Position numbers and translations under genes: made by a program | The notes under the pieces: model-generated | Database searches by the model: none | What the model saw: only the letters and a program-made list of their open reading frames with translations | What the model was told of the DNA's origin: nothing | From: Candidatus Omnitrophota bacterium | GTDB lineage: Bacteria > Omnitrophota > Gorgyraeia > Gygaellales > Profunditerraquicolaceae | Direction: 5' to 3' | DNA: 64,000 nucleotides | Assembly: GCA_030650425.1 (NCBI GenBank) | Contig: JAUSED010000005.1 | Coordinates: 78,932 to 142,931 of the forward strand | Part shown: one piece after another, positions 1 through 64,000 of the stretch | How positions within the stretch are numbered: position 1 is the first letter of the stretch | Layout: each line of letters opens with the position of its first letter

Positions 1-3000
1 AGGTAAAGGATGATGGCAAAGGGATTAACAAGGAGAAGATTATTAAGCGCGCGGAAGAGTTGGGATTCATCAAAAAAGGCCAAAGGCTTAGCGAGCAGCA
101 AATCCTTAACTTAATATTTCTGCCTGAGGTAAGCGAAGCAAAAGACAGCCGGGAAGGAACGGGAATAGGCTTGGCTACTATTAAGAAGAGCATTGAGGCT
201 GTATGCGGCCAGATAAACGTAAAGAGTAAGACAGGGCAAGGAACCCAATTTAGCTTTAGCCTGCCTTGCGGAGTAGAGCCAGATAAGCTGAAGTCCGGCC
301 TGATAAAATCATTAAAACATAAGCCGTTTGTTATCGAGGTAATCGGAGAAAGAGGGTCTTTTTATAAAGAGGCGGCTCTTTTCTTGACGTGCCTTTTGGG
401 AGCGCGGCCTTTTAACACAGGCTGGCATGCGCGCGCGGCAGTATCTTTATTGTTGAAAGCTATTATGGAAGGCGCGAAGGTAGACAAGAATGATACAAAA
501 GCTGTAGCCGAACTTATGGAAAAATTATTAGAATTAATAGACCGCCTCAGGGAGCCGGTAGTAATCGGCGGCATTGTTACAACCGCTAAGAATGGGAATG
601 CGGTATTGGCTTATCGCGATGAAATTAAATTAGTTACTGACGCCTTAGGCCTCCAGCTTCATAGATTGGTTAATAGCCTGGAAGTGAGCGCGGTAATTGA
701 TGAATTCATAAACAGCGTGGTTAATGGTACTATTGTTTCAGGCCGATACTCAGGCATAATTTTATATACCTCAAAACCGTCTAAACGAAAGGACTCGCTA
801 AAACTCGCGCTCTTGGCTCCTGCGGAAATACGCGCGCAGAGGTTGGGCTGTTCTGTAGAAGATATCAACAAGATAGACAAAAATACAGGTATGGGTGAGG
901 ATTTAAATTATTCCGATGGCATCCTATATATATCAACCGATGATCTTAGCCCGCGTCAGGCCTATCGCAAGGCGCTCGCTATTGTAAGAAAAGAGTTAGT
1001 TAAAGAGTCTTCGCCGCAATCTTCCACCAAACCTCTTTCATCCAGCCCTGCCAGTTCCCCGGTAGAATACGAAAGTAAGCCAGTGGTTTCAGGCGATATT
1101 TCCAGATTGCGCGGTTATTGGTTTATGGAAGCGCCGCGGGAGTATCGAAGGAACGCCCTTCTTTTCGCGGAGAATCACGATGAGCGTCCCGCGCTTGATG
1201 CCTTTAAGAGTATGGAAAAGGCAGAGGCCGCCGCTGTTATTATTCTATCAACAGAGGCGCATATGCTTATCCCGCTTGCCCAAATATACGGGATAAAAAT
1301 GCCTGTTGGCGCGCGCACGGAAATGATGAAATCCCCGGACGCGGGCATTTATCGTTTTAACTATCCACAGCGCCAAGAGGCTGACTTAAAAATAATGTCT
1401 TTCTTTGAACAGGTGCTTCCTATTTTTAGCCAGTCGGTTTTTAGTAAGGGCGATTTATACAGCGCTAAATTAGCTTATCCGGAGGTACATTCTTTAAGAG
1501 GGCTATTTCCGGTGGTGCGCCATTTGCAAGGAGCAGGCGACACAATAGCGGTGATTAATTATTCAGATGGCCGAGAGAAAGTCAGGATAGATTTAGCCAA
1601 AATTTTTGGTTATTATCCCAATCAGGGATTGGCAATTTTAACGCGTCAGCCCAAACTGCGCTATACCAAGAATGTCACTCTTGAATTTAAAGAACCGCGG
1701 ATAGAATTCTCTTTCGGCCCTTACGGCTATGCGATTTTAGGGTTTAGCTCCAGCTCGCCGTTGGAAGAGGAATTCGTATCTCCTACTTCTATGGAGCTTA
1801 ATCCTCACAACTCTTTCTACGGGCAAAAAACGATGATTGATGGCGTGCAGATAGATAAAGTTGTAGCAGCGGGCTTGAATAATTATATACAGGAAAAAGC
1901 ATTAAATACCGCTGACAAAGATAGATTGACTTTTTCTATTGATGGTGAGGCCTTGACGTATGAAATGGTTAAGCTCAAAGAGAGGGTTTTAGCCATAGAC
2001 ACAAGATTAAGCAGTTTGAACATAAAAGAAGCCTTAGCTGATTTATTAATCACAGGCTTAGAGGACGTAGCAGACTTTAATATAGAACAGCTGCCTTTTT
2101 GCTTACATTTTACACTACTTGAGAAATCCCGTTATCTTTTTGAATCTTTACCCGCGCATAATTTCGCAGGTATTAATAGGGGGATACTCGCGTTCACTAA
2201 CCCTCACGCCAGAGATGTTCTTTTGAGGCTGGGATTATGGCATATCTTGCATATTAAGGCAACAACCAAAGGCAGATTGCATGACGGCATTATGAGGCTT
2301 AGGGATGTCGGTGTTGCTAAGAGGTTGATCAAGGAAAGCCGGCTGGGAAGTATCAAAAGATTTATGGCCGCGGTTGAACGAGATGGAGTATTATCGGAGA
2401 ATGCGTTCTTGTTGAATATTCTAAAGGCTTTTTCGACGGAAGAGAAGAGCCCGCAGGATAAAGTGGCTGGTATAAGAGAAAGTATGCGTTGTGATCTCTT
2501 AAATGAACGTCTAAACGCGTTACAAGAAGCAGCTGATAATAATTTAGCAGTTTATCTTGTAGATGATTTATTAGTTTTGCTCCGCGAGAAAGAAGAGCCG
2601 GCCAGGTATAATTTACGCACGCAAGAGGGTAAAGATTGGTATCACGTTAAAATGAATGCTATTTGGCTGTTAGGTAAATTAGAAATATTTCAGGTTGGAA
2701 TAGAAAAAGCTAGGGAGGTCTTGGCCCTTATGCTTGCATTTGGCCTAAGGAGCCCCGCGCCCTGCGTTCATGTCTCAGCTATACTTTCTATTGAATCACT
2801 GGAAAAGAAGGCAAAGGCTTGGCTTAAGCAGGAAGAGGAGAAAGATACATTACTTCCGGGGGCATTACCCGAAGGTGGAGCGGTATCGAGCCCTGTTGAG
2901 GAGGAAGAGATTTTCTTAAGGGAAATTCTGGAAGAGTCTTGTCAAATGGGCTATACGCAGCGGGAGCGCGAGATTTTACAGAGCGCGGCAGAATTTATTT

Positions 3001-6000
3001 CTTCAGAATATCAAGGTAAAAGTTTTAAATCTGGGGAGACGTATTTCCATCATGCCTTGGCCGCGGCCAAGACGCTTTTAGGCTGGAGAGCCGATATAAA
3101 AATCGCCGTGGCGGCGTTTCTGCATAAATTAGACCCTGAATCAAGGAAAAGGCAGGAAGGCCGGCTGAAAATTAAGCATTTAGAAAGAGAAGAGGTTGAT
3201 CAAATTATCGGTATGGTTGAGCGTTTAGAAAACATTGAACAGCGCTGGCCGTATTTGGGCGGGACCATCGTTTACTTGAAAGGCAATAGAAGCGTGCGCC
3301 GTTACCAGAATGCCGTTATGCAATTATGCCGGGATTATGAAACGCTTCTTTTGGTTTACGCGGATAAATTACAAAGCCTGCCCAAGGCCGCGACCTTTAA
3401 GGAAAAAGAGTACCGTTTCCAGGAAATAGTGGATATTTATATGATGCTGCCAGCCCGCTATAACGATTATAGCATGTTTGAAAAACTTAGAAACAAGGCC
3501 TTTGCGATATATGTGCCAGAGGCGGTTTTAGCTATTGAAGGGGATGCCCAAAATAAAGGAATACGCCAAAAGACTTGGGGGCTTTCTTTCCAAGAAATGG
3601 AGCAAAAGCTGAGAGAACTTTCCGGAGAGATCGCTATTTTATTAGAGGCAGGCAACATTCAGGCGGAAATTAAATCGCGCGTAAAGAGCGCATACGGCAT
3701 GTTTGAAAAAATATCCAGCGGAAGAAGGGTAGAATATAATAATTTTGAGGCATTAAAAGATATTTTGGGAACACATATTATATCCGCAAGCGTGGATGTT
3801 ATTTATAATCCCATCATGGTTTGGCTGCGCAAGAAAGGATATAGTTTTAGCGTTGATCAAAAATCAAAATTCAAAAAAGGGTACGAAGCCATTCATATTG
3901 ATGTGGAAATAAACGGTATTGAGCAGGCGAAGGCCCCTCTGCCCTATGAAATCGTTATCTTTAGCCCGGATGATTATAAAAAATATATTTCCGGTAATAG
4001 AAAAGAAAAGTATCTGCCTTTAACTATCCCGCATTACGCTTGGAAATTCGCTGGCTTAGGCGAAAGAGGAGACGAGCAAATTATTGACGCGGATCAATTG
4101 GAATTAAATAGCTTGCCCGCTGAGAATTATCAACAATTGCTTCATTCGTTAAAAAAACTCATTTTTGTTAATTATTTAGAAAAAACACAACGCGGGCTTG
4201 AGGCGCGCTTTATAGAGCTTCCTTACCAAGCCTATCCGGCGGATCTGGCGGCGCATGAGGAGGTGAATAGGTTAGATTCTCAATACAATGGCTTTGTAAC
4301 AATCGCGCTTGAGAAGAGAGGAGAAGAAACCGTTAAAGAAATTTCTCGTCCCCAACCTTTGCAAGAAATCGCTCTTTTAGCAACAGGTATGATTGTCATG
4401 TTGAATCCTCCAGGGGAGGGTTTAGGCAAAGACGTGCTTGGGGTTCTTGAGACTAAAGTGAGCCAACCTCGCACAGTAATGCTTCTGAAGAGGTTGAGAA
4501 ATATGAAAAGTGCAGATTATTGGATTAGGGCGGGAAAGGCGTTAGTGAGCCATAATATAAAAGGCAGAGTTGATAAAGCATATTATGAAAACTTACGTCA
4601 GTTCGCGAGGAGCAAAGGATTTCTGGATATTGCTGAGCTTTTTGAGGCCTTTGGCCGCGGGATCGTTGAAGTTCCATTAGGCAAAAAAGGCGGCTCTTCA
4701 AGCCCCCTGGATTCATCCATTGACCTTGAATTCTTTAAGCATAAATTGCTTCATAGCGAAGGAAGCGTTTCCTTTAAGGGCCTAAATATTTACAGCGAAG
4801 AAGAAATCCGTTATTTTTGGAAGAAGCAAAAGAAATATGGCGGAGTTTTCCAGCAGTTGTCTTTCGCCGCCGATCAGCTAAGCAAGAAAGATAAGATTAA
4901 GGTTCTTTGCGCTGAGGGGGTTTCGCATTTTAAAGACGGCCCTAAATTTTTTACAGCCAGCCGCCTGGCTATTCTTCTGCGCGAGAAAGGCGTTCCTGCG
5001 GAGGCTTTTGACATTTATGTTGTGGATACGGATATGAGCGCGTTGGAACAAGCTGCTTACGGATTTTATGATGCCAGATGGTTCATTGCGCCTAAAGGTG
5101 AAGCGCAAGAGCAGGGTATATTTAAAAAATATTTTGTTGAGTCTAAAAAACCACAGGGGTATCAACTTAAAGAATCTCTACGCTCCCGCATTCATCCGGT
5201 ATATACGCCTTCCCTGATTGAGCTTGAGGAAATTAAAGAAATAGGCCAATTTGATTTGATTACATATTTTTTTAAGGAGTATGTTTTGGAAACAAATCCA
5301 AATGCTCACGGCCAGATCGTAACCAATATTGTAGCCGGACATTTGATCGCGTGCTTAAAGGAAGGCGGTTTTCTCTTAACAACAGCGAATAAATGGTTTG
5401 AAGAATCAAACCTGATGAAACGCCTATCCGTGACTGCGGTTTCCCGTATCCATCGTTCTAATGTGGGCACTTTTAGAACTAAGGTTCTCGCCTATAAGAA
5501 ATTATTCGCAAGCTATAATGATGAATTTTCTAATAAAAAACTCATTCAGCAGTCTAACCAGCTTCGCCATTTAGAAAAAGTTATGGGCCAAAATATCAGC
5601 GTTAAAAGATTCAGGGACGCGTATGAGCTTGCGCGTCAAATCCATCGGGGCAAGAAAAGAGATAACGGAGAACCGTATTTAATGCATCCTATAGCCGTCG
5701 TTGATATTTTTATTGATGTTTTAAAAAGATACCCTCAATATTGGAAGCAATTAGGCTTGGATAGGATTTCTCTGGATGATTCTTATGCCGCTTTGATTGA
5801 CCATGATGTGTTTGAGGAGTATGACTATGATCATGGCCCGTTGAAGAGAAAACAATTAGAGAGCCTGATTAAAATCGAATTAGGGGATGCGGCTTTTGAT
5901 TTTATCATCATATTGACAAATGATAAGGCAAGCGAAGAAGAATATCTTTTGCGCATTATTAGTGATACCCGTTTAATCCTTTCTCTTATGAAGATGGCTG

Positions 6001-60000: not shown

Positions 60001-63000
60001 TTATCCCTGAAATTATTTCTGAAGCTATTGCAGAAGAAGTTCAAAGAATGCCGGCTTGGGAACTTTTATCTGTTTTAGATCTCAAAAAGGCCAAGCTACT
60101 TTTTACTAAAAGCGGTCCTAGAGAGCTTACTGTCCACAAGATTAAAGTGCCAAAGCTTGTAAATAAGTATAAAGCGCCAGAGGGTTTAAGTATTCTGCCG
60201 TATGAACTTTTTGATACGACAGAATTTGAACTTTTATACAATAAAAAAGGATACCTTATCGCGATTTATCCGGTTCTCCCAAACGGATTCCTGATTAAAT
60301 CTGGCGAACGACTCCCTCACTATTTTGATTTTAGTGAATATTATTTTAAAATTCCGGAATTCGGTGATCCGAAAATGATTGAAAAATGGGATGCCTTCGT
60401 AAAGGATGTCGGCAGAGATCGGGAAGCAATACAGGCTTATGAGGATTTAATCGGGATAAAGGGTAAGCTTGAAAGGCGCCCGCGTTGGGTACCTTACATC
60501 TACGCAAATCTTGATTATCGGGATAATTTTCCATTTGCTCGGGCTTTTTACATTGAGATGTTTAGCCGTTTGATTAAAAAAGATGAAATCTCGAATAAAA
60601 TCTCTAGAGACATAATCCGGTCTATTCTTCCTGTTTTTCCGACTGTTTACCATCCGGGATCCCATTTATTGGATGATTGGAAATACATTTTAGCTGTTAC
60701 CAGGCGTCTTGATATCCAAAAAGACCATGATATTTTGGTTGTTGGCCCGGGGAATGGCCTTGACACTTGGTTTGTTTCTCGGCAAACAAGGCGGAAAATT
60801 TATGTTGCGGGAATTAATCCTTTGGAAGTTGCCAATACCAGGGCTGTCGCAAAAATTGCCGGGTTTAAGATAGAAGCCAGGATTTACGACAACATTATTT
60901 CTAAAGACGGCGTGACTGTCTTTAATAAGAGATTTGATCGGATTATCTGGAATATGCCCACATATTATCCGGTTGCCCCTAGAATCCGGGAAAGCCTTGA
61001 AGAATGGGAAGATAATGATTACGACGGTATGATCTTAAGGCGTTTTGCCGGAGGCCTTCCATTACTTCTTAAACCAAATGGAATTGCTTTGGTTTGGAAT
61101 TCCGCTGCCGGAAAACTTTTAGATGAGGTTGAAGAAATCTTAAAAGCAAGAGGAGCGCTAGATGTGGCAGTCGAAAAATACCCGGGTATGACGTATTTAG
61201 CCAATATCGAAATGGGCACGGAAACCATTCCTACCGCGCTTTACTTTATCCGCAAGGGAAAAAATCCGGATGCAGCAAGCGCCTATTGTGTCAGTTCGCC
61301 GCTGAAAGAAATAGTTGGAGCGACGGTGGTGACGCGAGGCGCCGCCTCGCCGGTTTCGGGGGGAATATTCCTAACTATATTATGGCCTAAAGACGGTAAT
61401 ATCTTTAATGCGCTCAAAATCTCTGTCATTAGTAGCGATATTCCTAATCTTGCGGATTCTCATAAGAGCAAGATTGAGGGCATCGTTTGTCAACAAGCCG
61501 GATTGCTTAATGATCAATTGGGCAGTATCAAAGACACTTTCATTCAGCGGCCATATCTTGATGTTCAGTTTAGGGATACTATTTATGGCTATATGACACT
61601 TACTGAGTTCTTTGGTTATTTGCGGATGGGATTTAAGGTAGGAGACAGCTTTATGGGAGGATATATTGTAGATTTCTATGGTTTCGGCAATCATAAGACG
61701 ATGCAGAAGCTCAGCGACTACAATAACAGAAGTATAAGCAATTATTTCTTTTTGCTCGCAGCGCTGAAGAAAATTGGTGGCGTTATCATTGATGCCCAGA
61801 AAGTGGTATATAAATATATTGGAGTCAACGAAGATTTTTTTACCGGATTTGACTTTGGCGAGCATCTAATTATTCAAAGGGCTAAAGTTAGGGGATTCAG
61901 CAAGTATCTTAGCAATGCCGCGTTTAATATGTATGATAGCGCGAGTAACTTCAGTGGTGGTTTTAGGCAACTCAAACCTTATTTCTATCCTCTGATGTTC
62001 GGCAAGGGGAACCTTGGAGAGCGGGCGAATGACCCCTCGTTCATAAATTCCCAGTATAGTCTTAGTCATATTTTTTCTCCTTCTAAAAAAGTATACCACG
62101 CTCTTAACGGGGTTGTCAAGAATATTAGTCTTGCCGCCTCGCCGATAAGGATCTCTCCATTTCTCAGTGACATATTTAGAATGTTTCATATGTTTGAGGT
62201 AAATGAATCTATTTTAAGCGAAGACGGGAAAGAGGCGCAGCAGTGGGTTAAGAAAATCATTGGCACAATGCAGAGGCCCCCTGTCGGCCTTATTACAAAT
62301 AATAATGCAGAAAAGCTCATAGCGCTTATGCCTAATCCACGGAAAATATCTCTCGGTGGTTGGTTTGATCTTAGCAGCCTCAATTTTGGAAGCGATGATG
62401 AATTTGGCTTTGGTTGTTTAAGGCCTTGCCCGCATTGTTCAGAAGGGAATACAAGAGCGCGGGTAACAAATCGCACGCTGCCGCCTGCAATAAAGCTTAT
62501 TGAAGAGATGCGCAAGGAAGGCCAGCAAGATACGTTAAGAGGCCTGAAAACTTATCCCGGAAGGTTTCTGATCCAAGGGTGGAATAACACCGACCTTTTC
62601 TATTGGTGTGATCCTTTCTTTAGAGTCTATTTAGACGGCCTTATTGAATTTATCGCGCGTCATTACAAAGATAGAAAATTCCGCCTGCGGATAGCCACAA
62701 TCGGCCCAAACATAGATGACTGGCGCGCATTTATCGTAGCAAAGAGTATTGACAATCTGGTGCTTCAATATCCTGAGTTAAGAAATAATATATTTAGTCT
62801 ATCCTTGCATTTGGCCTTATTTAGCACCAGAGGGTTTGATTATAATACTATCTCTGCTTTGTATGAGCGCAAGATAAATCCACAGCGGCTGGCTAAGGTT
62901 ATAGATAACTATGTGGCCCGCTACGCAGCTATTATTGGCGTTCTCAAGAATACGCTAAGAACGGTCAAAGTATTTCTGTCAAATGAAAGCAGTGAATTTG

Positions 63001-64000
63001 ACTCTCTTACGCTTACTGTATTAGATAGGGTCTTAGAGAGGGTCAATATCAGTGGTGGCTTAAAACAGAAGATTATTGATGGAGTAGCTGCAAGAGAACT
63101 AAACAGTGATGTAATGACCCCGTACGGCTTTACTGTAAAAAGCGCTAACATTACGCCATCCGGCCACCGGGGGTTTGATTTTGTAATTGGGTTATTCAAG
63201 CTTGCAGGCAGATGGAAAGAAGCTGAACGTTACAAGAGGGCTCAAGCAGTAATGAACTTCGCTCCATACCGCAGTAATTATGTCCCAGAAGATGGGTACC
63301 CTCAAACCATAATTTTACCGGGAGAAAGAATTATTGTTCAAAACGAGAAAAGAGAAATGTTTAAATTACCTCTGCAACAACTCGATCCTGATGCTGAATT
63401 TCTTGCCCGCTACGGACTACCTGACAAAAAATCTATAACTAAATATTTATCTTCAAGCCCATTGGCCGAAGTCGCCGCCTCGCCGGTGATAAACAGGCAA
63501 TCCATAACTTATGAAGAATTTGCCGATGATAAACTAGTCAGATTATTACAAAGCGCATCAGAAGAAGAAGTATGGGAGGGCATAATTCAATCCTTAGAAA
63601 AGCCAAGTCTCACTAAGAAAGAGGTGTCGGTAATTTTTGAGAATATTGTAAAGATATGTTATATGGAATATGGATATTACAGGTTCTCCGGTTTTTACTC
63701 TAAGGAGAAATTCCGCGAATTTTTTAAGAGGCTATTAGCATTTAAAGAGGAAATAACCGAAAGGATATTTGTAAATGAAGAAATTAAAATTCTATTCAGG
63801 AAAAGAATTGAAATTCTGAACAAAGTTTTAGATCTATCTGCGGCCGTTCCTTATGAGGTAATTCACTACCAAAGAGAGGATAGGATCATTCCTAAAGACA
63901 CCGATGGTTATTCTTTACCTTTAGCATTTTTAAGAATAATAGCTTTGACTATTTACGATACGTTGAAGGTTAATTTGACAAATAAGGTGGTTGCTATGCA
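1..64000 (+). CDS. Internal fragment of one giant stop-free ORF (21,332 codons in the window, truncated at both edges), encoding a mosaic multi-module protein
   Basis: In the phase with codons at 3,6,9..., my by-eye translation pass from 3 to 63998 met no stop (selected stretches were checked codon by codon). The ORF track lists only three short plus-strand ORFs, all in other phases, as expected if this frame never closes in the window. Recognisable protein domains occur in this phase along the whole length. Confidence 0.9.
3..269 (+). other. C-terminal part of a CheA-type histidine-kinase ATPase (HATPase_c) domain
   Basis: The translation VKDDGKGINKEKIIKRAEELGFI..QQILNLIFLPEVSEAKDSREGTGIGLATIKKSIEAVCGQINVKSKTGQGTQFSFSLPC matches the DDGxGI, ILNLIF-PGFS, GxGxG and G-GT-F blocks of CheA-like kinases. 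Confidence 0.75.
1095..1745 (+). other. Alpha-amylase-family (GH13-like) C-terminal fragment, region IV onward only
   Basis: LLFAENHDERPALDAF resembles GH13 conserved region IV (FxxNHDxxR). It is followed by AAVIILSTEAHMLIPLAQIYG and a beta-sandwich-like tail (GDTIAVINYSDGREKVRIDL). The N-terminal catalytic regions are absent, and the module starts directly after the junction at about 1056. Confidence 0.35.
2990..3990 (+). other. RelA/SpoT homologue module (HD hydrolase-like plus (p)ppGpp synthetase-like domains)
   Basis: The HD part reads GKSFKSGETYFHHALAAAKTLL..AAFLHKL. The synthetase part reads AEIKSRVKSAYGMFEKISSGRR..ALKDILGTHII..KGYEAIHIDVEI, which matches the RelA_SpoT pattern (RxKS.S...K, D..G.RI, GY.S.H). 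I checked the translation codon by codon at 3660-3790. Confidence 0.75.
4890..5300 (+). other. CheR-like SAM-dependent methyltransferase domain
   Basis: IKVLCAEGVSHFKDGPKFFTASRLAILLRE..FDIYVVDTDMSALEQAAYGFYD..FDLITYFFKEYVL parallels the CheR pattern (RIWSAGCSTGEEPYS..ATDID..AL..A..G.Y..FDLIFCRNVLIYF). Confidence 0.55.
5610..6030 (+). other. Second HD (SpoT-type metal-dependent phosphohydrolase) domain
   Basis: AYELARQIHRGKKRDNGEPYLMHPIAVVDIF..ALIDHDVFEE matches the SpoT/HD signature (H.GQ.R..GEPY..HP..VA ... HD..ED). Confidence 0.6.
7293..7437. mobile_element. MITE-like 145-bp palindromic element inserted in-frame, flanked by an 8-bp direct repeat CACGATTC
   Basis: The terminal inverted repeats are GTAATGCGTCGGTCAATGGGGG (7293-) and CCCCCGTTCACTGACGCATTAC (-7437). 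The inner hairpin is GTCATTGCGAGCGAACGAAGTGAGCGAAGCAATCTC / GAGATTGCTTCGTCGCTGCGCTCCTCGCAATGAC. An identical CACGATTC occurs at 7285-7292 and at 7438-7445. Confidence 0.8.
8109..8228. mobile_element. Second MITE-like palindromic element (~120 bp) inserted in-frame, flanked by the direct repeat TTATTG
   Basis: ACTGTTGCGAAATG (8111-8124) is the perfect reverse complement of CATTTCGCAACAGT (8212-8225). The inner hairpin is CGTCATCCTGAGCGAAGCGAAGGATCTCG / CGAGATTCTTCGGCCTTCGGCCTCAGAATGACG. TTATTG occurs at 8103-8108 and at 8229-8234. Confidence 0.75.
8880..9060 (+). other. HEAT/PBS-lyase-like repeats
   Basis: LLLRIAKDSNHLIRKDLAVSLRQLLAHDIHAEILNELINDADREVREEALV fits the HEAT_2 pattern (d.d..vR..a..aL). 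Confidence 0.4.
9636..9708 (+). other. Internal signal-peptide / TM-like hydrophobic segment
   Basis: KLLAAFVFLAYLAASIFSPIVSRA|DSVQ lies about 35 codons downstream of the junction ISSSPI (about 9531). Confidence 0.5.
10760..11440 (+). other. Paralogous module copy A (unknown function; H-x-H motif), followed by a junction and a GerE HTH array
   Basis: LKEHYTEIIVALAMNFPSRIEP...IRYLQEMAGNFELQFCVVSPK..PLLIFSKEL...RFVPFASAVAHTQAYL...LEISWF aligns by eye with copy B at 31235-31985. Confidence 0.6.
11446..12345 (+). other. Three GerE/LuxR-type HTH units
   Basis: The three units read WTDRELEIWRLWAKGVDREAIGKALNEGERFIKRVISKIITKFNI, LSEREKKILWLFIAGYNPKAIALTLSLPEGILLSDILFAMKQKLRV, and LAPSELKLLQKILEGKKMKQI.... 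Each follows the LTxRExxVL..a.G...keIA pattern. Confidence 0.55.
15451..15537 (+). other. Internal signal-peptide-like segment with an AxA-type site
   Basis: GASPIRVMAAGIALITYLHLVLFTPVFA|AEQALKA lies directly after the junction NSSPLAEG (about 15414). Confidence 0.55.
16555..17420 (+). other. TPR repeat block
   Basis: Repeated W/Y..G..Y...G....A...Y..A motifs, for example LWIVVGNYYQNIGDAENAIRAYKEAVEV, WQLAGEIYYKLGDLNQARDAFAIS, and VRLGDIYYQQGDFKQAAKFYADALKSD. Confidence 0.7.
20540..21035 (+). other. GGDEF diguanylate-cyclase domain (GGEEF active site intact)
   Basis: [78 protein letters not shown]. I verified this codon by codon over 20520-20820. Confidence 0.9.
21525..22070 (+). other. RsuA/RluB-family pseudouridine-synthase-like domain, catalytic Asp motif lost
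   Basis: TEGLIILTNNPHLKERLQNNIISQPERYRVSIEGKVSEEDL...ILEIYFSRRGEREILVLFKNFGYSVKNITRTQIGLISPQDLKPGSYRRLKWNEI parallels T.GLLLLTNDG.L...L.HP.....K.Y.V.V.G......L ... L.EGRNRQVRRMF...G..V..L.R..IG...L.DL.PG..R.L. The position of GRLD reads TPAQA. Confidence 0.6.
22262..22900 (+). other. Protein-kinase-like fold module
   Basis: EGGFKRVYKIVLRS..FFVKVVKA (Gly-loop/Lys-like) and FADSKPENVIIHHKSQIGYRGTLIDMDNI (catalytic-loop D.KPEN and DFG-like DMD). Confidence 0.45.
22990..23200 (+). other. ThiS/MoaD-like beta-grasp module (tentative)
   Basis: IKIAINDKEVLVPERTTLLEILNDCYVDINTMDVELNGNLL resembles ThiS (I.vNG......g.Tl..LL........vAVe.NG.iv). There is no C-terminal GG. Confidence 0.3.
24790..25235 (+). 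other. TPR repeat block
   Basis: ANLLNDFGAICLDQGRYSLARILFEVGL.., HFQLGYVSYLLGEFNLAFAYFQTAKRLG, and GFNLVSICKELGDFDNALKEFQEMMQ. Confidence 0.6.
27500..27620 (+). other. HExxH zinc-metallopeptidase-like motif region
   Basis: VRIIIHEYVHYYSFYSPIMQSESFAEVFAE contains HEYVH with a downstream Glu. The assignment rests on the motif only. Confidence 0.3.
29190..29960 (+). other. Sigma-70-family-like module (region 2 and region 4 HTH)
   Basis: Region 2-like: IIRFNMGLIKKIIASYKV...LEDAAIFGAKIAALKYHPERGVKFMTFAWNVIKHEINKIL, compared with nlrLV..iA.ky...DL.QEG..GL..A...fd...g.kFsTYA.wwIr. Region 4-like: KDLFREVVCLE..DTADQFGFSIVAKQRGIKRQTVTKAYYLVLATLR. I verified this codon by codon at 29220-29460. Confidence 0.55.
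30232..31005 (+). other. Low-molecular-weight phosphotyrosine phosphatase / ArsC-like module
   Basis: IKVVFLCNGNRWRSAAMYLW carries the CX5R(S/T) P-loop (C-NGNRW-R-S). A DP-containing loop (ADVLDPDKKEI) lies downstream. Confidence 0.55.
31235..31985 (+). other. Paralogous module copy B, followed by a junction and an XRE HTH array
   Basis: LKEDYLDSLIKIIMAFPSNIDP...VRNIQELAGDFELQFTVIFPK..PLVVFSREL...RFVPFAFSVGHTHGLA...IELAWF aligns with copy A at 10760-11440. Confidence 0.6.
31990..33080 (+). other. Array of about seven tandem XRE/Cro-C1-type HTH units
   Basis: LKQTRRAMDLTQEELAERL.., LRESLGYTPAKLAKVIGYTEVDILHWENAEAWIP, LRQIREKMGLSQKELVNRLG.., LRKDLDYTKESLGRKVGYSRTSVAKWEKGLQNVP, LREFLGYRAEKLARELG..ILRWEEGKEWIP, LRQIRKEVMNLLQKEFGEKVGYSQNISIYLREKG, and INEELGLNITDLISLL... 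Confidence 0.7.
33630..34200 (+). repeat. Three tandem ~64-aa (~190 bp) repeats of unknown function
   Basis: Each unit contains (K/R)KY(R)KI(Y)RA..L...(E)WGFL(N/D)W.SAVKA.G..P. Examples are LRKYRKIRRAFLFLREKGFLSDWNSAVKATGGQP, IKDKYRKIYRAYLLYGIEWGFLNWASAVKACGAKP, and IKKRYPQLFISFIFCQEEWGYLDWSSAVRKTGNQP. Confidence 0.7.
35340..35900 (+). other. TPR-like repeat block
   Basis: AEQLLNDGQYAEAIKLFKQVV, AVDLFEQRNYGKAKGVWKKVL, and AKAYFISGKEHYLRGNYRRAINYFRKVLDV. Confidence 0.55.
36050..36660 (+). other. Second sigma-70-like module (weak region 2; region 4-like HTH)
   Basis: EIVDTHLWLVKLAAIRYLRN.. and AVRQVVTLAFQGLSMEFITRRTELNEKEINQYLKQGGQEIQSLAGL. The C-terminus is paralogous to 33370-33500 (RKVLYLALNHEDMDNIIRLTGLTQEEIDRHLIEGGEKIQKISGL). 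Confidence 0.4.
38400..38760 (+). other. GNAT acetyltransferase-like module
   Basis: AFITAFVLGSLIRHNGYGIKIFRTAIKALKDRKYTSLFLIT resembles GNAT motif A (V.p..rg.GiG..L.......a...g...i.L). Confidence 0.45.
38865..38876 (+). repeat. Junction 12-mer GCCGCCTCGCCG (Ala-Ala-Ser-Pro), perfect copy
   Basis: Exact match, codon-aligned (start divisible by 3). Context: GPAASPVLGK. Confidence 0.95.
38945..39065 (+). other. Transmembrane segment
   Basis: FLVLKVVVVGIIAAGVILVAIAYLFSFIYRFFYFFL. Confidence 0.6.
39822..40165 (+). other. TPR repeat block
   Basis: EVNNLFKQGRFREAVGKLRELLS, ALHMLGSAFIGLKKPYTETMFCLDSALRL, and LGLGLTYNKLGLPDKALGCFEKIIEG. Confidence 0.55.
40975..41530 (+). other. Polytopic membrane module (about 5 hydrophobic helices)
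   Basis: WLSIFPAALFWAGYYLF, VIILASIALIGLTTIVFPSL, FLFSGIYFFSMIIFSALCSVFIL, and FKAFLVFMGAFFISDIVAMF. Confidence 0.6.
41823..41834 (+). repeat. Junction 12-mer, perfect copy
   Basis: Exact match, codon-aligned. Context: NPAASPLAEE. Confidence 0.95.
43555..44340 (+). other. Radical SAM domain
   Basis: ITSKCNLQCAPCIAQ has the CX3CX2C motif at 43590-43613. It is followed by WFVGGEPSLYG (the GGEP motif) and IDTNGTF. Confidence 0.7.
45420..45900 (+). other. HEAT-like repeats
   Basis: IIQQIGGKRAARKLANIFNERDMSWQVKILDMVGTM, AVRNFNPEIVNEAVCGLRNLV, and DAVKLLTNL... Confidence 0.35.
46280..46990 (+). other. Calcineurin-like / PPP-family metallophosphoesterase domain
   Basis: VLVIPDIHCQ (DxH), IQIGDVISRGPE (GDxxDRG-like), LLGSHELL (GNHE-like), VVHAGV, and VGHSP. 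The motifs occur in the canonical order. Confidence 0.7.
49250..49660 (+). other. M48 (HtpX/Ste24-like) zinc peptidase module with following TM helices
   Basis: DAYGRASLSGNYITINPNQLGNPDFELAKLMGHEITHITLGH resembles NAfa.G...I.i..gL...l...El.aVlaHE.gHi...H. It is followed by IGFRVTTALFSILFAAMISGII and LLIAVVFLGTVLMCYLV. Confidence 0.65.
49950..50330 (+). other. PrmA-like class I SAM methyltransferase domain
   Basis: HTTTQSALLALERINITGKTVIDAGTGDGVLAIMMAK..AADF..LELAKENARLNGV..VDILVTNI. Confidence 0.6.
50484..50495 (+). repeat. Junction 12-mer, perfect copy
   Basis: Exact match, codon-aligned. Context: LAAASPVSQL. Confidence 0.95.
53085..53096 (+). repeat. Junction 12-mer, perfect copy
   Basis: Exact match, codon-aligned. 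Context: NPAASPLADK. Confidence 0.95.
53202..53700 (+). other. LOG / TIGR00730-family (Rossmann, PGGxGTxxE) domain, copy 1
   Basis: KVAVFCSAR..GYTIITGAGPGLMEAVGEGA..FVIIPGGLGTLDELLEALTL. The PGGLGTLDE motif was verified codon by codon at 53487-53513. Confidence 0.8.
53800..54300 (+). other. LOG-family-like domain, copy 2 (more divergent)
   Basis: AVGILGSHSF..ILYRGCQGITEAVDKAIE..LIFFAGGIGTLDILSDALCLIQ. Confidence 0.55.
54835..54896 (+). repeat. 62-bp double-junction repeat, copy A (SSPVEKTVGATVVTRGAASP)
   Basis: The 40-bp core AGTTGGAGCGACGGTGGTGACGCGAGGCGCCGCCTCGCCG (54857-54896) is identical to 61313-61352. The 22 bp upstream are similar, with several mismatches. Confidence 0.9.
54885..54896 (+). 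repeat. Junction 12-mer, perfect copy
   Basis: Exact match, codon-aligned. Context: RGAASPLGEW. Confidence 0.95.
55980..56230 (+). other. GNAT-like module
   Basis: GIIAFVRLKLRP..GAGFIVSPVIRQVKRYDTETLLMAVIQSIIEFSLQQLGRVRVWADPANRKMLDYILLFG. Confidence 0.35.
56380..56870 (+). other. Polytopic membrane module (about 4 helices)
   Basis: TVGLSIIISYALLVPVFDLYL, VWIMTFAFLLLAWKF, IIFYLTAFCPGIFLSLITTLSLATIF, and IFFSAVAVAFFSYYTHATAYFILVMLL. The module starts right after the junction GASSPL (about 56364). Confidence 0.6.
57456..58220 (+). other. Signal-peptide-like segment followed by a TPR block (resembles a stand-alone secreted TPR protein)
   Basis: KGNKFLTLTSAFLIFLTSFHLYLSPLRAYA|NLK is followed by YNQASRHLKNQKYQEALDLYIKLIKLAPNYIDAYIDRAYLY, YNHYGLFYYHLEGDYKKAVSYFEQAIGLEPDN, and NDLGGAYFKLGKYGLAEEAYTKAI. 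Confidence 0.6.
59400..59900 (+). other. PrmA-like class I SAM methyltransferase domain
   Basis: HPSTLGAIWAMERY..QQVLDAGCGEGVFTILAANLGASKVIGVDL..ARRNAELNRL..FDKIITNIP. Confidence 0.65.
59964..59975 (+). repeat. Junction 12-mer, perfect copy
   Basis: Exact match, codon-aligned. Context: AGAASPLGKN. Confidence 0.95.
60690..61230 (+). other. Class I SAM methyltransferase-like domain
   Basis: HDILVVGPGNGLDTWFVS..KIYVAGINPLEVANTRAVAKIAG..FDRIIWNMPTYY (an NPPY-like motif) ..LKPNGIALVW. Confidence 0.5.
61291..61352 (+). repeat. 62-bp double-junction repeat, copy B (SSPLKEIVGATVVTRGAASP)
   Basis: The 40-bp core at 61313-61352 is identical to 54857-54896. It lies immediately upstream of the antisense TA cassette. 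Confidence 0.9.
61341..61352 (+). repeat. Junction 12-mer, perfect copy (left border of the TA cassette)
   Basis: Exact match, codon-aligned. Context: RGAASPVSGG. Confidence 0.95.
61380..61865 (-). CDS. vapC: PIN-domain ribonuclease toxin (VapC-like), antisense to and nested in the giant ORF
   Basis: This is the 161-aa ORF in the track. The four PIN acidic positions occur in canonical context: IFVDSNIFIY, VVAELLHRL, LLTNDALNLALM, and ATNDRDFERI. Its ATG (61863-61865) abuts the TAG stop of the upstream small gene (61866-61868), a typical TA operon layout. Confidence 0.85.
   Translation of the reverse strand: MLAKVKSGKKIFVDSNIFIYHFLGINDNATNFLQRCEQKEIIAYTSVIVVAELLHRLMIAETIEIYNISSHKAVSYLKSHPQITKELSKCHIAINSIPKLNIKIWPLNESVFDTAQLIIKQSGLLTNDALNLALMRIRKIRNIATNDRDFERIKDITVFRP
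61866..62069 (-). CDS. Small antitoxin (AF2212/DUF104-like), 67 aa from the internal ATG
   Basis: MTKTILGIYERGVIRPLSKVPLAEHQRIEIRFELP matches the ..aiYenGvlkPlepl.LpEg.rv.i pattern of PIN-associated antitoxins. An AGGAG SD lies 7 nt upstream of the ATG at 62067-62069. The track ORF (107 aa) over-extends 5' across the promoter. Confidence 0.7.
   Translation of the reverse strand: MTKTILGIYERGVIRPLSKVPLAEHQRIEIRFELPKTTTEVTRAIIHIKRGIAKILAESPNFSPLNN
62077..62119 (-). promoter_or_regulatory. Sigma-70-type promoter plus Shine-Dalgarno for the antisense TA operon
   Basis: The minus strand reads TTGACA (62119-62114), an 18-nt spacer ending in TGG (extended -10 TGn), TATACT (62095-62090), TTTTTAGA, AGGAG (62081-62077), AAAAAAT, then ATG. 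Confidence 0.65.
62133..62144 (+). repeat. Junction 12-mer, perfect copy (right border of the TA cassette)
   Basis: Exact match, codon-aligned. Context: SLAASPIRIS. Confidence 0.95.
62400..63200 (+). other. Possible second radical-SAM-like module
   Basis: FGFGCLRPCPHCSEGN carries CX3CX2C at 62415-62438. No other motif is confidently recognised. Confidence 0.3.
63474..63485 (+). repeat. Junction 12-mer, perfect copy
   Basis: Exact match, codon-aligned. Context: EVAASPVINR. Confidence 0.95.

Follow-up and report, generated by a model that had tools for sequence, protein, structure and literature searches.

A Ser-Pro junction motif delimits in-frame, exchangeable cassettes in a giant Omnitrophota gene that probably encodes a cleaved polyprotein

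How is a bacterial open reading frame (ORF) of at least 63,996 nucleotides (nt) of uninterrupted coding sequence built, and in what form is its product used? These questions are raised by a 64,000-nt stretch of DNA from a Candidatus Omnitrophota bacterium (contig JAUSED010000005.1), here called the window, in which positions are counted from the first letter. The window (41% G+C) is a single stop-free ORF of 21,332 codons on the forward strand, in the frame starting at nt 3, whereas each of the remaining five frames contains 802 to 2,021 stops. The ORF is open at both ends, and the window is therefore an internal piece of a longer gene. A preliminary description of this DNA had noticed a short Ser-Pro motif that recurs between unrelated domains. 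The analysis reported here points to a giant gene that is an in-frame array of at least 52 cassettes with this motif as the joint and that probably encodes a cleaved polyprotein; the probability of this reading as a whole is put at about 0.55.

The motif is far more frequent than the composition of the protein predicts. The pattern [A/S]-S-P-[V/L/I/A/M] occurs 70 times in the translation, compared with 2.57 ± 1.61 times in 1,000 residue shuffles (maximum, 10), and the stricter form [AS][AS]SP[VLIAM] occurs 43 times, compared with 0.34 by shuffling (maximum, 3). In an unbiased k-mer scan, the top over-represented tripeptide was SSP (50 vs 3.7), and the commonest tetrapeptides were SSSP, SSPV, and SSPL. 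When Gly is permitted directly before the motif Ser (position −1), the number of copies in the window rises to 77. Of the approximately 75 copies listed in the preliminary description, 74 can be matched to a Ser-Pro codon pair no more than 8 nt from the listed position (67 core motifs, 5 G-S-P-[VLI], and 2 SSSPT); the list missed the copies at 1044 and 15450 and gave one position, 27073, 16 nt away from the true 27057. That description had also proposed a comparison with shuffled sequences, an overlay on domain boundaries, and a search of homologous giant genes, and all three, the first given above and the others below, came out in its favor. Chance, compositional bias, or an assembly artifact is a practically negligible explanation: the linkers around the motif are somewhat rich in Ser, Gly, and Pro, but the excess over shuffles is 27-fold, no shuffle exceeded 10 copies, and the motif recurs at conserved positions in independent assemblies from many samples. 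An artifact of repeated domains was rejected as well, given that internal paralogy of the ORF is nearly nil (7 high-scoring segment pairs [HSPs]) and that the lone short tandem repeat, at 55824 to 55862 (20 nt, 1.9 copies), looks trivial.

The spacing of the copies is bimodal, with about 18 gaps of 4 to 60 amino acids (aa) and the remainder of 74 to 1,045 aa. The short gaps correspond to double and triple junctions and one quadruple junction, and the long gaps correspond to modules. Altogether, the copies form 53 junctions, between which lie 52 modules (median length, 315 aa; mean, 390 aa; Table 1). The mean spacing of about 0.85 kb reported at first does not stand for a uniform spacing. The blocks singled out at that time, namely, the RelA/SpoT homolog (RSH), radical SAM, and M48 blocks, are each flanked by consecutive motifs.

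Copies of the motif are confined to short linkers without structure that connect folded units; none is inside a unit. Across the window and seven related giant ORFs, in which Pfam domains cover 11.7% of the sequence, none of 158 motifs falls inside a domain, compared with 18.4 expected (P ~3e-9; motifs used to cut query pieces were excluded). An AlphaFold2 model of aa 6840 to 7165 has a mean predicted local distance difference test (pLDDT) score of 86 and contains two confident domains; internally, the pLDDT falls below 50 only at residues 174 to 184, where the sequence VSSPI occupies residues 177 to 181. When the downstream domain was modeled alone (pLDDT, 89), the motif residues, 1 to 6, were disordered at the N terminus. 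It is very likely that the motif acts as a junction, that is, as a cassette boundary.

The units delimited in this way resemble complete proteins. Pfam and NCBIfam profiles identified a heterogeneous series of mostly cytoplasmic-type domains in the window: HATPase_c, HD plus RelA/SpoT, a CheR-like region, GerE, TPR, GGDEF, several XRE-type helix-turn-helix (HTH) domains, GNAT, radical SAM, Metallophos, M48, two PrmA-like methyltransferases, and a tandem LOG. The position at which GGDEF stops before its junction matches the C terminus of free-standing diguanylate cyclases, and the tandem-LOG module consists of two copies of the size of free-standing LOG homologs, which are ~240 aa long. Module ends match the ends of full-length profiles (Table 1), in agreement with the earlier picture of a train of self-contained, gene-sized modules on one linker. 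Relic internal translation starts were considered and rejected: in the 40 codons after the motif, neither Met (0.42 vs 0.48) nor a Shine-Dalgarno sequence combined with an in-frame start codon (0.10 vs 0.11) is enriched.

Homologous giant genes carry the same motif. The best database match to the LOG block was P0001, a product of 1,542 aa that takes up the whole of a 4.7-kb contig in a "Candidatus Omnitrophota bacterium" metagenome-assembled genome (MAG), and 58 loci were obtained when JGI metagenomes and GTDB genomes were scanned with the guidance of profiles. The motif-bearing giant GTDB loci (L025 to L028, L030, L035, and L037) all have Omnitrophota titles, and three giant metagenome loci (L002, L003, and L006) are enriched in the motif like the Omnitrophota-titled giant ORFs. 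Enrichment is 13- to 55-fold in 10 Omnitrophota giant-gene fragments, with the following observed and expected numbers of motifs: L001, 3 and 0.28; L002, 11 and 0.30; L003, 23 and 0.96; L006, 7 and 0.40; L025, 3 and 0.15; L026, 23 and 0.73; L027, 14 and 0.42; L030, 18 and 1.39; L035, 30 and 0.90; and L037, 13 and 0.39. SSP ranks first among the tripeptides in each of them, apart from the short L001. An exhaustive HMMER search with the module at aa 7010 to 7890 added six long motif-bearing fragments without taxonomic assignment (P0013, 21 motifs and 1.0 expected; P0014, 32 and 1.2; P0016, 6 and 0.2; P0044, 13 and 0.85; P0046, 8 and 0.5; and P0047, 20 and 1.1). Ordinary 240-aa LOG genes of other phyla have the motif at chance level only, and a 5,115-aa ORF in an "uncultured Planctomycetia bacterium" MAG (L029) has 0 copies, with 0.67 expected. 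Both the motif and its placement are shared by related giant genes; ordinary genes lack it. The planctomycetal ORF has the tandem-LOG module and a zincin-like domain in common with the window, and its LOG module is flanked by hydrophobic, transmembrane (TM)-like segments. The best identity of the window to any retrieved sequence is ~38 to 42% per module, and neither a 5.8-billion-protein index nor the representative genomes in GTDB r232 contained a close relative; nor were there matches when the radical SAM block was used in a word-index protein search or when GTDB genomes were scanned with a single protein.

Comparison of these genes indicates how they change. In 10 genes (the window and nine relatives), a motif stands at each end of the tandem-LOG module, which is 34 to 51% identical among them and has differing flanking modules. 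For example, RSH adjoins LOG in L002, and the two are ~16,000 residues apart in the window. Loci L001 and L024 are 94% identical until AGCTCGCCGGT and unrelated beyond it. Loci L001 and L003 are unrelated before AGCTCGCCGGTA and ~80 to 90% identical after it, a pattern found at two successive module starts. Between its YkuD and LOG modules, L003 has an additional 150-aa cassette with a copy of the motif on each side; this cassette (nt 8897 to 9346) recurs in L035 (nt 18066 to 18503) with 88.6% nucleotide identity in an unrelated context, and the HSP begins 1 nt before the Ser codon. This cassette is a candidate for recent mobilization. A further homology, between L006 and L026 (75.5% over 1,311 nt), spans the distance from motif to motif. 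The DNA of the motif is the exact crossover point for the insertion, loss, and exchange of cassettes between these giant genes, in line with the earlier suggestion that the linker is the scar of a cassette-joining mechanism. The switching of homology at the motif and the occurrence of cassettes in different contexts show that the motif is an in-frame exchange joint, and a role in recombination is likely.

The peptide specificity of the junction was examined in a pool of 66,001 residues that combined the window with ten relatives. Position 0 is Ser only (215 vs 8.4 expected), with no enrichment of Thr (<3 copies), and position +1 is Pro only. Position −1 is mostly Ser (180) or Ala (35), with Gly slightly represented; position −2 is S (89), A (52), V (27), T (15), or G (14); and position +2 is V (81), L (58), I (43), A (29), or S (17). 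Positions +3 and +4 are polar and unconstrained. The overall consensus is [S/A/V/T/G]-[S/A/(G)]-S-P-[V/L/I/A/M], with a lineage preference at position +2 for L in L002, V in L026 and L006, and A in L030; Leu is the residue after Pro in 22 of 70 window copies and in 10 of the 11 copies of L002.

The codons of the motif are biased as strongly as its residues. TCG, the rarest Ser codon in the ORF, encodes the motif Ser in 43 of 70 window copies, compared with a background of 12%; CCG encodes Pro in 45 of 70, compared with 31%, and Ala is encoded by GCC. The sequence CGCCTCGCCG occurs 14 times in the window, on the forward strand and in frame only. G+C at the third codon position (GC3) is 0.84 at the motif Ser codon versus 0.40 in the background, and the rise is limited to codons −3 to +1. 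L001, L003, L006, L027, and L035 show this bias too, and homogenized codons of the form AGC/GCC-TCG-CCG-STN in several lineages provide 12 to 15 nt of microhomology. The flavor of the codons varies along the window: AGC TCG CCG GTG (S-S-P-V, often followed by E-E-E) is typical of the 5′ third, GCC GCC TCG CCG STN (A-A-S-P-V/L) is typical of the 3′ two-thirds, and the bias at junctions is strongest from 36.7 kb to 63.5 kb. Some relatives follow a different pattern. In L002, SSPL is present at 10 of 11 junctions but is encoded by six different Ser-Pro codon pairs, none of them TCG-CCG, including switches between TCN and AGY codons; L037 behaves in the same way. Because the peptide is kept in these loci while the codons are scrambled, selection acts on the protein: the junction peptide itself is under selection and is probably read by a protein. 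The uniformity at the nucleotide level, which is lineage specific, is most simply explained by concerted evolution of junctions that are reused as crossover microhomology, although translational pausing or a DNA-binding factor could also cause the codon bias. Further ideas were rejected. GC-biased gene conversion at a hotspot does not fit a GC3 rise that is confined to the motif codons and has no flanking gradient; purifying selection acting on the synonymous sites of orthologous junctions is not convincing, with a codon identity of 33% versus 27% inside the module; and programmed frameshifting or termination is not indicated, since out-of-frame stops are no commoner after motifs than elsewhere, except in L002, where the excess is attributed to TTA Leu codons.

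These data bear on the possibility that the junction is a nucleic acid signal, such as a 12- to 15-nt recombinase target, an RNA-processing site, or a site of translational pausing or recoding, to which the peptide is incidental. Such a signal would be in keeping with a strong bias that is restricted to codons −3 to +1, with the strand and frame specificity of the 10-mer, with the mapping of crossovers to the motif, and with the fact that TCG is found in different lineages, at 12 of 20 orthologous LOG junctions; a recombinase or RNase with affinity for GCCTCGCCGG would speak for it. This explanation is nevertheless improbable: codon choice is free in L002 and L037, and 27 of the 70 window copies use other Ser codons. 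Furthermore, folding of ten 80-nt windows revealed no consistent RNA structure (z-scores, −0.84 to +0.98), there was no Rfam match, the motif has no inverted-repeat architecture, and none of the out-of-frame stops, Shine-Dalgarno sequences with start codons, or Met codons discussed above is enriched after the motif.

Additional evidence comes from giant genes that do not use the Ser-Pro motif. Many fragments of giant proteins, from several lineages, contain homologs of the pseudouridine-synthase-like plus kinase-like module of the window. Five of these fragments, P0003, P0007, P0008, P0012, and P0023, lack the motif, and each has a recurrent short peptide of its own. In P0003, [TP]DxSG[AV]AP is present in 4 copies (0.02 expected), 20 aa before the start of the module and 11 aa after its end. 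The corresponding peptides are PAAGL[EG]E in P0007 (3 to 4 copies, 0.07 expected; 12 aa before and 20 aa after), RSE[VI]R in P0012 (5 copies, 0.12 expected; 17 aa before and 57 aa after), and an RSEMR-type peptide in P0023 (5 to 6 copies, 0.05 expected; not seen before the start, 7 aa after the end). Where tested, the alternative peptides flank the module and are never inside it. GGG[LM]S[IV]D is also among the recurrent peptides of giant fragments without the Ser-Pro motif. Peptides that are uniform within a gene and different between lineages resemble the cleavage sites of polyproteins, and recombinational homogenization would give the same pattern. The existence of a different, internally uniform junction peptide in each lineage points to a general, hitherto undescribed design principle of giant bacterial genes.

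The alternative peptides also bear on the proposal, raised in the preliminary description, that the motif Ser is phosphorylated or glycosylated by a proline-directed enzyme, for example, for protection or regulation of the linker. In favor of this, the Ser never varies and its linker is exposed, the window encodes kinase-like and phosphoesterase modules, and glycosyltransferases are the second most common domains of Archaeovorins (West-Roberts et al.). However, the junction peptides of other lineages either have no hydroxyl acceptor (PAAGLEE) or are chemically different (RSE[VM]R), and the function shared by junctions is therefore not modification of Ser. Moreover, known Ser/Thr-modifying systems normally take both residues, and Thr is not enriched in place of Ser. 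Modification is thus disfavored and is considered very improbable as the reason for the motif.

Several module starts resemble the N termini of exported or membrane proteins. In one relative, a junction is followed by a signal-peptide-like sequence (SSPV-NRLAAFTLMPFVYGLGINSYVVMAYA|QQ) and then by LysM-YkuD; in another case, the module start is lipoprotein-like (SSPV...KKFFISMFMLGIFLIPFGC|AS). A hydrophobic stretch of 13 residues occurs within 45 residues after 7 of 114 junctions, compared with 1.9% of random positions (P = 0.006), and upstream of none. Hydropathy, a crude method, predicts 10 to 22 TM segments in the window, depending on the threshold. At all thresholds, the number of segments between certain pairs of cytoplasmic-type modules is odd: a single segment separates the CheR-like module from GerE, and three separate the radical SAM module from the methyltransferase. 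An intact chain therefore could not satisfy the topology of all of these modules.

Such features have to be set against a simpler view of the junctions, in which the giant protein remains intact, the motif is a passive hinge, that is, a flexible, helix-breaking spacer, and its uniformity results from joining at microhomology. The location of the motif within disordered linkers, the nucleotide-level homogenization (the 14 copies of one sequence on one strand and in one frame, and the preference for TCG), and the breakpoints exactly at the motif are all compatible with this view; cleavage, moreover, is so far inferred, and a 2026 Omnitrophota preprint treats most giants as membrane-anchored single proteins (10.64898/2026.06.07.730766). 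But flexibility does not need an invariant Ser-Pro-aliphatic sequence from which Thr is excluded. In L002 and L037, the peptide is held despite scrambled codons, including the TCN/AGY switches, and therefore microhomology is not what maintains it there; when distant relatives are compared at orthologous LOG junctions, the codon identity for Ser and Pro (33%) does not convincingly exceed that inside the module (27%). Finally, the post-junction signal peptides and the odd TM parity suit separated products better. A passive hinge combined with microhomology is, on balance, unlikely.

The reading favored here, an in-frame cassette array encoding a cleaved polyprotein, includes a specific proposal for how the product would be used. 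The giant product would be cut into modules by a site-specific endopeptidase that reads the junction peptide, with the scissile bond either after the aliphatic residue (P4 to P1 being [A/S]-S-P-[V/L/I]) or after Pro. An endopeptidase is proposed because the specificity is strict (no Thr) and the conservation is independent of codons, because the junction peptides are lineage specific yet internally uniform, and because signal peptides start at junctions, TM parity is odd, and protease modules are present within the genes. Of the roles suggested in the preliminary description, a protease site is also the one that would best account for selection on the peptide. The peptide [A/S]-S-P-[V/L/I] resembles the classical subtilisin and elastase substrates Ala-Ala-Pro-Phe/Leu/Val at P4 to P1, and a cut after the aliphatic residue is therefore chemically plausible. 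Taken by itself, the function of the motif as a cleavage site has slightly less than an even chance of being correct.

The candidate enzymes would be subtilisin-like and zincin-like modules carried inside the giant genes themselves. The proteases seen are M48 in the window, a subtilisin-like module in L003, and a zincin-like family, none of them tied to the motif by specificity. The subtilisin-like module of L003 (nt 12041 to 15106, aa 4013 to 5035) directly follows a motif (SSSP-AQGGKIVVFVID), matches subtilisin Carlsberg with an E value of 1.8e-14, and has the GTSYA Ser motif and a conserved AAAGN oxyanion region; an I9 propeptide was not detected in it. Its putative Asp and His are unusually close (VID-RFDAKSN-HGE). 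The zincin-like family is defined by a previously unannotated domain of ~135 aa with the pattern DPHRAK...RAGP...LYLD...TLIHEA...D..NE.FA, which is present in up to four copies per fragment and sits directly after junctions in the giant proteins of several lineages. Its AlphaFold model adopts a zincin fold, with a Foldseek probability of 0.89 to selecase at an E value of only 0.096; no Foldseek match reached 0.001, and neither this domain nor a 715-aa module has significant Pfam or PDB sequence matches. The domain can be considered only a candidate junction protease.

Several observations weigh against this reading. Cleavage of the giant product at the motif is deduced from sequence, and the TM-parity argument draws on hydropathy only. 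The window contains no S8 or C39 domain, its zincin-like copy lacks the His-Glu pair, and the second His of HExxH is missing from the zincin-like family as a whole. Proteins other than a protease could read a conserved disordered linker, for instance, a chaperone, a docking partner, or an enzyme that modifies it. From the marked preference for TCG-CCG/GCC, it follows that something acts at the nucleotide level too, and microhomology alone could produce the uniformity of the motif within a lineage.

In its broadest form, the proposal is that the giant genes of Omnitrophota are "operons written as one ORF" with a lineage-specific junction code that is at once a crossover point and a coevolving protease site. 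This extension is tentative and somewhat doubtful as a whole. The same codons would serve both the in-frame capture, shuffling, and loss of cassettes and recognition by the protease, which would be subtilisin-like or a member of the new zincin-like family, and some of the released proteins would be exported via their own signal peptides.

Several features of the modules and junctions were noted in addition. Modules A and B are the sole sizeable pair of internal paralogs in the ORF (~290 aa; identity in Table 1). Both are followed by an HTH module, which belongs to the GerE/LuxR family in one case and to the XRE family in the other. The presence of a DNA-binding HTH next to both copies, from different families, suggests that modules A and B and their neighbors are functionally coupled cassettes, e.g., a sensor plus a regulator. 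Core metabolic enzymes also appear as cassettes in giant ORFs (L035 aa 3797 to 4269, L027 aa 3560 to 3692, and L035 aa 13 to 161); the embedded types are glutamate/leucine dehydrogenase, the N-terminal domain of alanine dehydrogenase/PNT, a PEP-utilizing enzyme domain, and HPr. The C terminus of P0001 (L001 aa 1480 to 1552) is a proline/tyrosine-rich tail with 5 PAY.P repeats (0.012 expected). Similar tails are found in P0005 and P0044, and a conserved domain that looks like a hydrolase precedes them; the tail may be a common C-terminal end piece of giant genes. Where motifs are paired, the mini-cassettes of 8 to 28 aa between them could be remnants of deleted cassettes or could form a structured double linker. 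In three double junctions, the distance between the Ser codons is exactly 51 nt (53040/53091, 54840/54891, and 61296/61347). Two of the three have in common the spacer peptide x-E-x-VGATVVTRG-AASP, and in the RNA of this shared spacer, GGUGGUG can pair with CGCCGCC.

Table 1. Junctions and modules of the giant ORF, in window coordinates
Feature	Position	Strand	Sequence or remark
Internal part of giant ORF	3..63998	+	21,332 codons, no stop
Junction 1 (double)	1041..1064	+	SSSPA-SSPV
Junction 2	1752..1763	+	SSSPL
Junction 3	2886..2897	+	VSSPV; RSH module start
RelA/SpoT-like module (HD_4 plus RelA_SpoT)	2898..4697	+	SpoT profile position 2 = module residue 7
Junction 4	4698..4709	+	SSSPL; RSH module end
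Junction 5	6249..6260	+	FSSPV
Junction 6	7050..7061	+	SSSPV
Junction 7	7926..7937	+	SGSPI (Gly variant)
Junction 8	8253..8264	+	ISSPM
Junction 9 (double)	9441..9539	+	AGSPI ... SSSPI
Junction 10 (double)	10536..10580	+	GSSPL ... TSSPM; module A start
Paralogous module A	10581..11417	+	motif-bounded at both ends
Junction 11	11418..11429	+	TSSPL; module A end, GerE HTH next
Junction 12	13620..13631	+	SSSPV
Junction 13 (double)	15411..15458	+	NSSPL ... GASPI; TM-like segment next
Junction 14 (double)	18051..18119	+	FSSPV ... SSSPA
Junction 15	18630..18641	+	SSSPL
Junction 16	19305..19316	+	VSSPV; TM plus GGDEF module start
Module of N-terminal TM segments plus GGDEF	19317..21053	+	GGDEF stops 5 residues before junction
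Junction 17	21054..21065	+	VSSPI; disordered linker between GGDEF and zincin-like domains (AlphaFold)
Zincin-like domain (DPHRAK...RAGP...TLIHEA...NE)	21084..21458	+	degenerate copy (TLIYLAG)
Pseudouridine-synthase-like plus kinase-like module	21495..23642	+	labels read from match sequences and motifs, no family assignment
Junction 18 (double)	23643..23738	+	GSSPA ... VSSPI
Junction 19 (double)	24492..24641	+	GSSPV ... VASPV
Junction 20	27054..27065	+	SASPV
Junction 21 (double)	28032..28187	+	SGSPL ... SSSPL
Junction 22	30159..30170	+	SASPI
Junction 23	31026..31037	+	ASSPI; module B start
Paralogous module B	31038..31967	+	33% identical to A; motif-bounded at both ends
Junction 24	31968..31979	+	TSSPI; module B end, XRE-type HTH module next
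Module of several XRE-type HTH plus Aca2/MqsA-like region	31980..33545	+	HipB-like profile position 6 = residue 7
Junction 25	33546..33557	+	VSSPV
Junction 26 (double)	36681..36725	+	SASPV ... ASSPA
Junction 27 (double)	37659..37730	+	VGSPL ... VASPV
Junction 28 (double)	38841..38879	+	PGSPL ... AASPV; TM segment next
Junction 29	39783..39794	+	AASPM
Junction 30	40806..40817	+	SSSPL
Junction 31 (triple)	41751..41891	+	SSSPL ... AASPL ... SSSPI
Junction 32 (double)	42771..42848	+	SSSPL ... SASPL
Junction 33	43383..43394	+	AASPV; radical SAM module start
Radical SAM module	43395..46025	+	
Junction 34 (double)	46026..46217	+	ASSPL ... VASPI; radical SAM end, Metallophos start
Calcineurin-like/ApaH-like phosphoesterase module	46218..48008	+	profile position 4 = module residue 25
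Junction 35 (double)	48009..48065	+	AASPI ... SSSPV
Junction 36	48930..48941	+	SSSPI; TM segment next
Junction 37	49230..49241	+	AASPL; M48 module start
M48 peptidase module with TM segments	49242..49718	+	
Junction 38	49719..49730	+	SGSPV (Gly variant); between M48 and methyltransferase
Junction 39	50487..50498	+	AASPV
Junction 40	50793..50804	+	ASSPL
Junction 41	51576..51587	+	ISSPI
Junction 42 (double, 51-nt spacing)	53037..53099	+	LSSPI ... AASPL; tandem-LOG start, conserved in 9 relatives
Tandem LOG/TIGR00730 module	53100..54371	+	motif at both ends here and in 9 relatives, neighbors differ
Junction 43 (quadruple)	54372..54599	+	LSSPV ... NSSPV ... SSSPA ... SGSPL; tandem-LOG end, conserved in relatives
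Junction 44 (triple)	54810..54899	+	VSSPV ... FSSPV-EKTVGATVVTRG-AASPL
Junction 45	55623..55634	+	ASSPI
Junction 46	56361..56372	+	ASSPL; TM segment directly after
Junction 47	57375..57386	+	SASPV
Junction 48	58341..58352	+	ASSPV
Junction 49	59139..59150	+	TASPL; methyltransferase module 2 start
PrmA-like methyltransferase module	59151..59966	+	272 aa; full-length profile 288 aa
Junction 50	59967..59978	+	AASPL; methyltransferase module 2 end
Junction 51 (double, 51-nt spacing)	61293..61355	+	VSSPL-KEIVGATVVTRG-AASPV; paralog of junction 44
Junction 52	62136..62147	+	AASPI
Junction 53 (double)	63453..63488	+	SSSPL ... AASPV

The largest predicted proteins, which in Omnitrophota can exceed 100,000 aa, are functionally opaque, and the junction motif offers a way into them. 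A regular expression segments giant ORFs into units that can be annotated and folded separately, and the processing of giant proteins becomes a question for mass spectrometry, in which neo-termini at S-P-[V/L/I] can be weighed against bridging peptides. With a standard joint for in-frame exchange, giant genes can become longer and more varied, in the manner of VENN toxin swapping repeated dozens of times within one ORF. If the proposal as a whole is true, these genes form a cellular polyprotein system whose scale is without known precedent in bacteria, which would explain how the largest genes are both built and used.

Among described giant proteins, the nearest are the Omnitrophota "Archaeovorins": the nearest relatives of the window are genes of Omnitrophota MAGs, TM segments are present in both, and the window shares the domain repertoire of Omnitrophota giant genes, namely, methyltransferases, HATPase_c, radical SAM, TPR, LOG, GGDEF, and peptidases. 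Glycosyltransferases, HEAT repeats, NUDIX, and SecA_DEAD were not detected in the window, but the gene extends past both ends, and therefore absence here does not mean absence from the gene. S8 and C39 domains are reported in full-length giants, in which cleavage by these domains has been suspected, and the lack of known cleavage points has been named as an obstacle to subdividing them (West-Roberts et al. 2023, bioRxiv 10.1101/2023.11.21.568195). No published description of the junction motif was found, including in that study and in the 2026 preprint (10.64898/2026.06.07.730766), and neither of these two papers applies cassette or recombination terms to the internal structure of giant genes. 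Junction-coded exchange of cassettes, probably combined with polyprotein processing, has not been described before in giant proteins or at a scale of more than 50 cassettes in one bacterial ORF.

Individual aspects of the gene have parallels in better-known systems. Like the MARTX toxins, it encodes a very large bacterial protein with a train of unrelated domains. The processing sites of MARTX are short (small-Leu-small), lie in unstructured segments between effectors, and are all cut by the toxin's own protease domain (PMC2900308), and the repertoire of effectors varies between strains via recombination, as PMC6315884 relates from Kwak et al. 2011. However, MARTX toxins carry 3 to 5 effectors in ~5,000 aa, compared with more than 50 modules in more than 21,000 aa here; a Pfam scan of the window detected neither RTX repeats nor the C80 cysteine protease domain; and the site is Ser-Pro-aliphatic, with Leu as the aliphatic residue in part of the copies but with flanks that are not small-Leu-small. 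Cleavage is proven for MARTX and predicted for this gene, and conservation of the junctions at the nucleotide level has not been described for MARTX.

The VENN motif of CdiA and the PxxxxDPxGL motif of Rhs proteins are likewise short conserved peptides that mark exchangeable cassettes. In CdiA, homology between strains begins at the motif DNA and runs to the next motif, and recombination there has been proposed (PMC3150448); the same pattern of homology is seen here. The CdiA-CT region is freed by proteolytic cleavage, according to PMC9424206. These systems differ from the present gene in having one junction, a single C-terminal toxin, a downstream immunity gene, and orphan cassettes outside the ORF, whereas here dozens of junctions lie in one ORF without intervening genes or immunity genes, and the cassettes encode enzymes, regulators, and envelope proteins. 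An integron-like array does not fit, since ten junctions showed no consistent hairpin and the 12- to 15-nt core is not palindromic, that is, there is no attC-like structure.

In the P97/P102 adhesins of Mycoplasma hyopneumoniae, the sequence S/T-X-F|X-D/E in disordered regions directs processing into several fragments. The likeness consists in a short linear motif in disordered regions of large bacterial proteins; the adhesins differ in having few sites each, no known exchange of cassettes at the motif, and another chemistry. Viral polyproteins (of picorna-, poty-, flavi-, and nidoviruses) yield many mature proteins from one ORF, and their junction consensus, which is recognized by the virus protease, is uniform within a lineage and different between lineages. 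The junction peptides of the giant genes are likewise uniform within lineages and different between them. Unlike the viral polyproteins, this is a cellular bacterial gene that is an order of magnitude longer, its cassettes turn over frequently, and the protease is only a candidate. In their working, the linker sites of MARTX, the VENN junction of CdiA, and the viral polyproteins come closest to this giant gene, which belongs to none of these systems.

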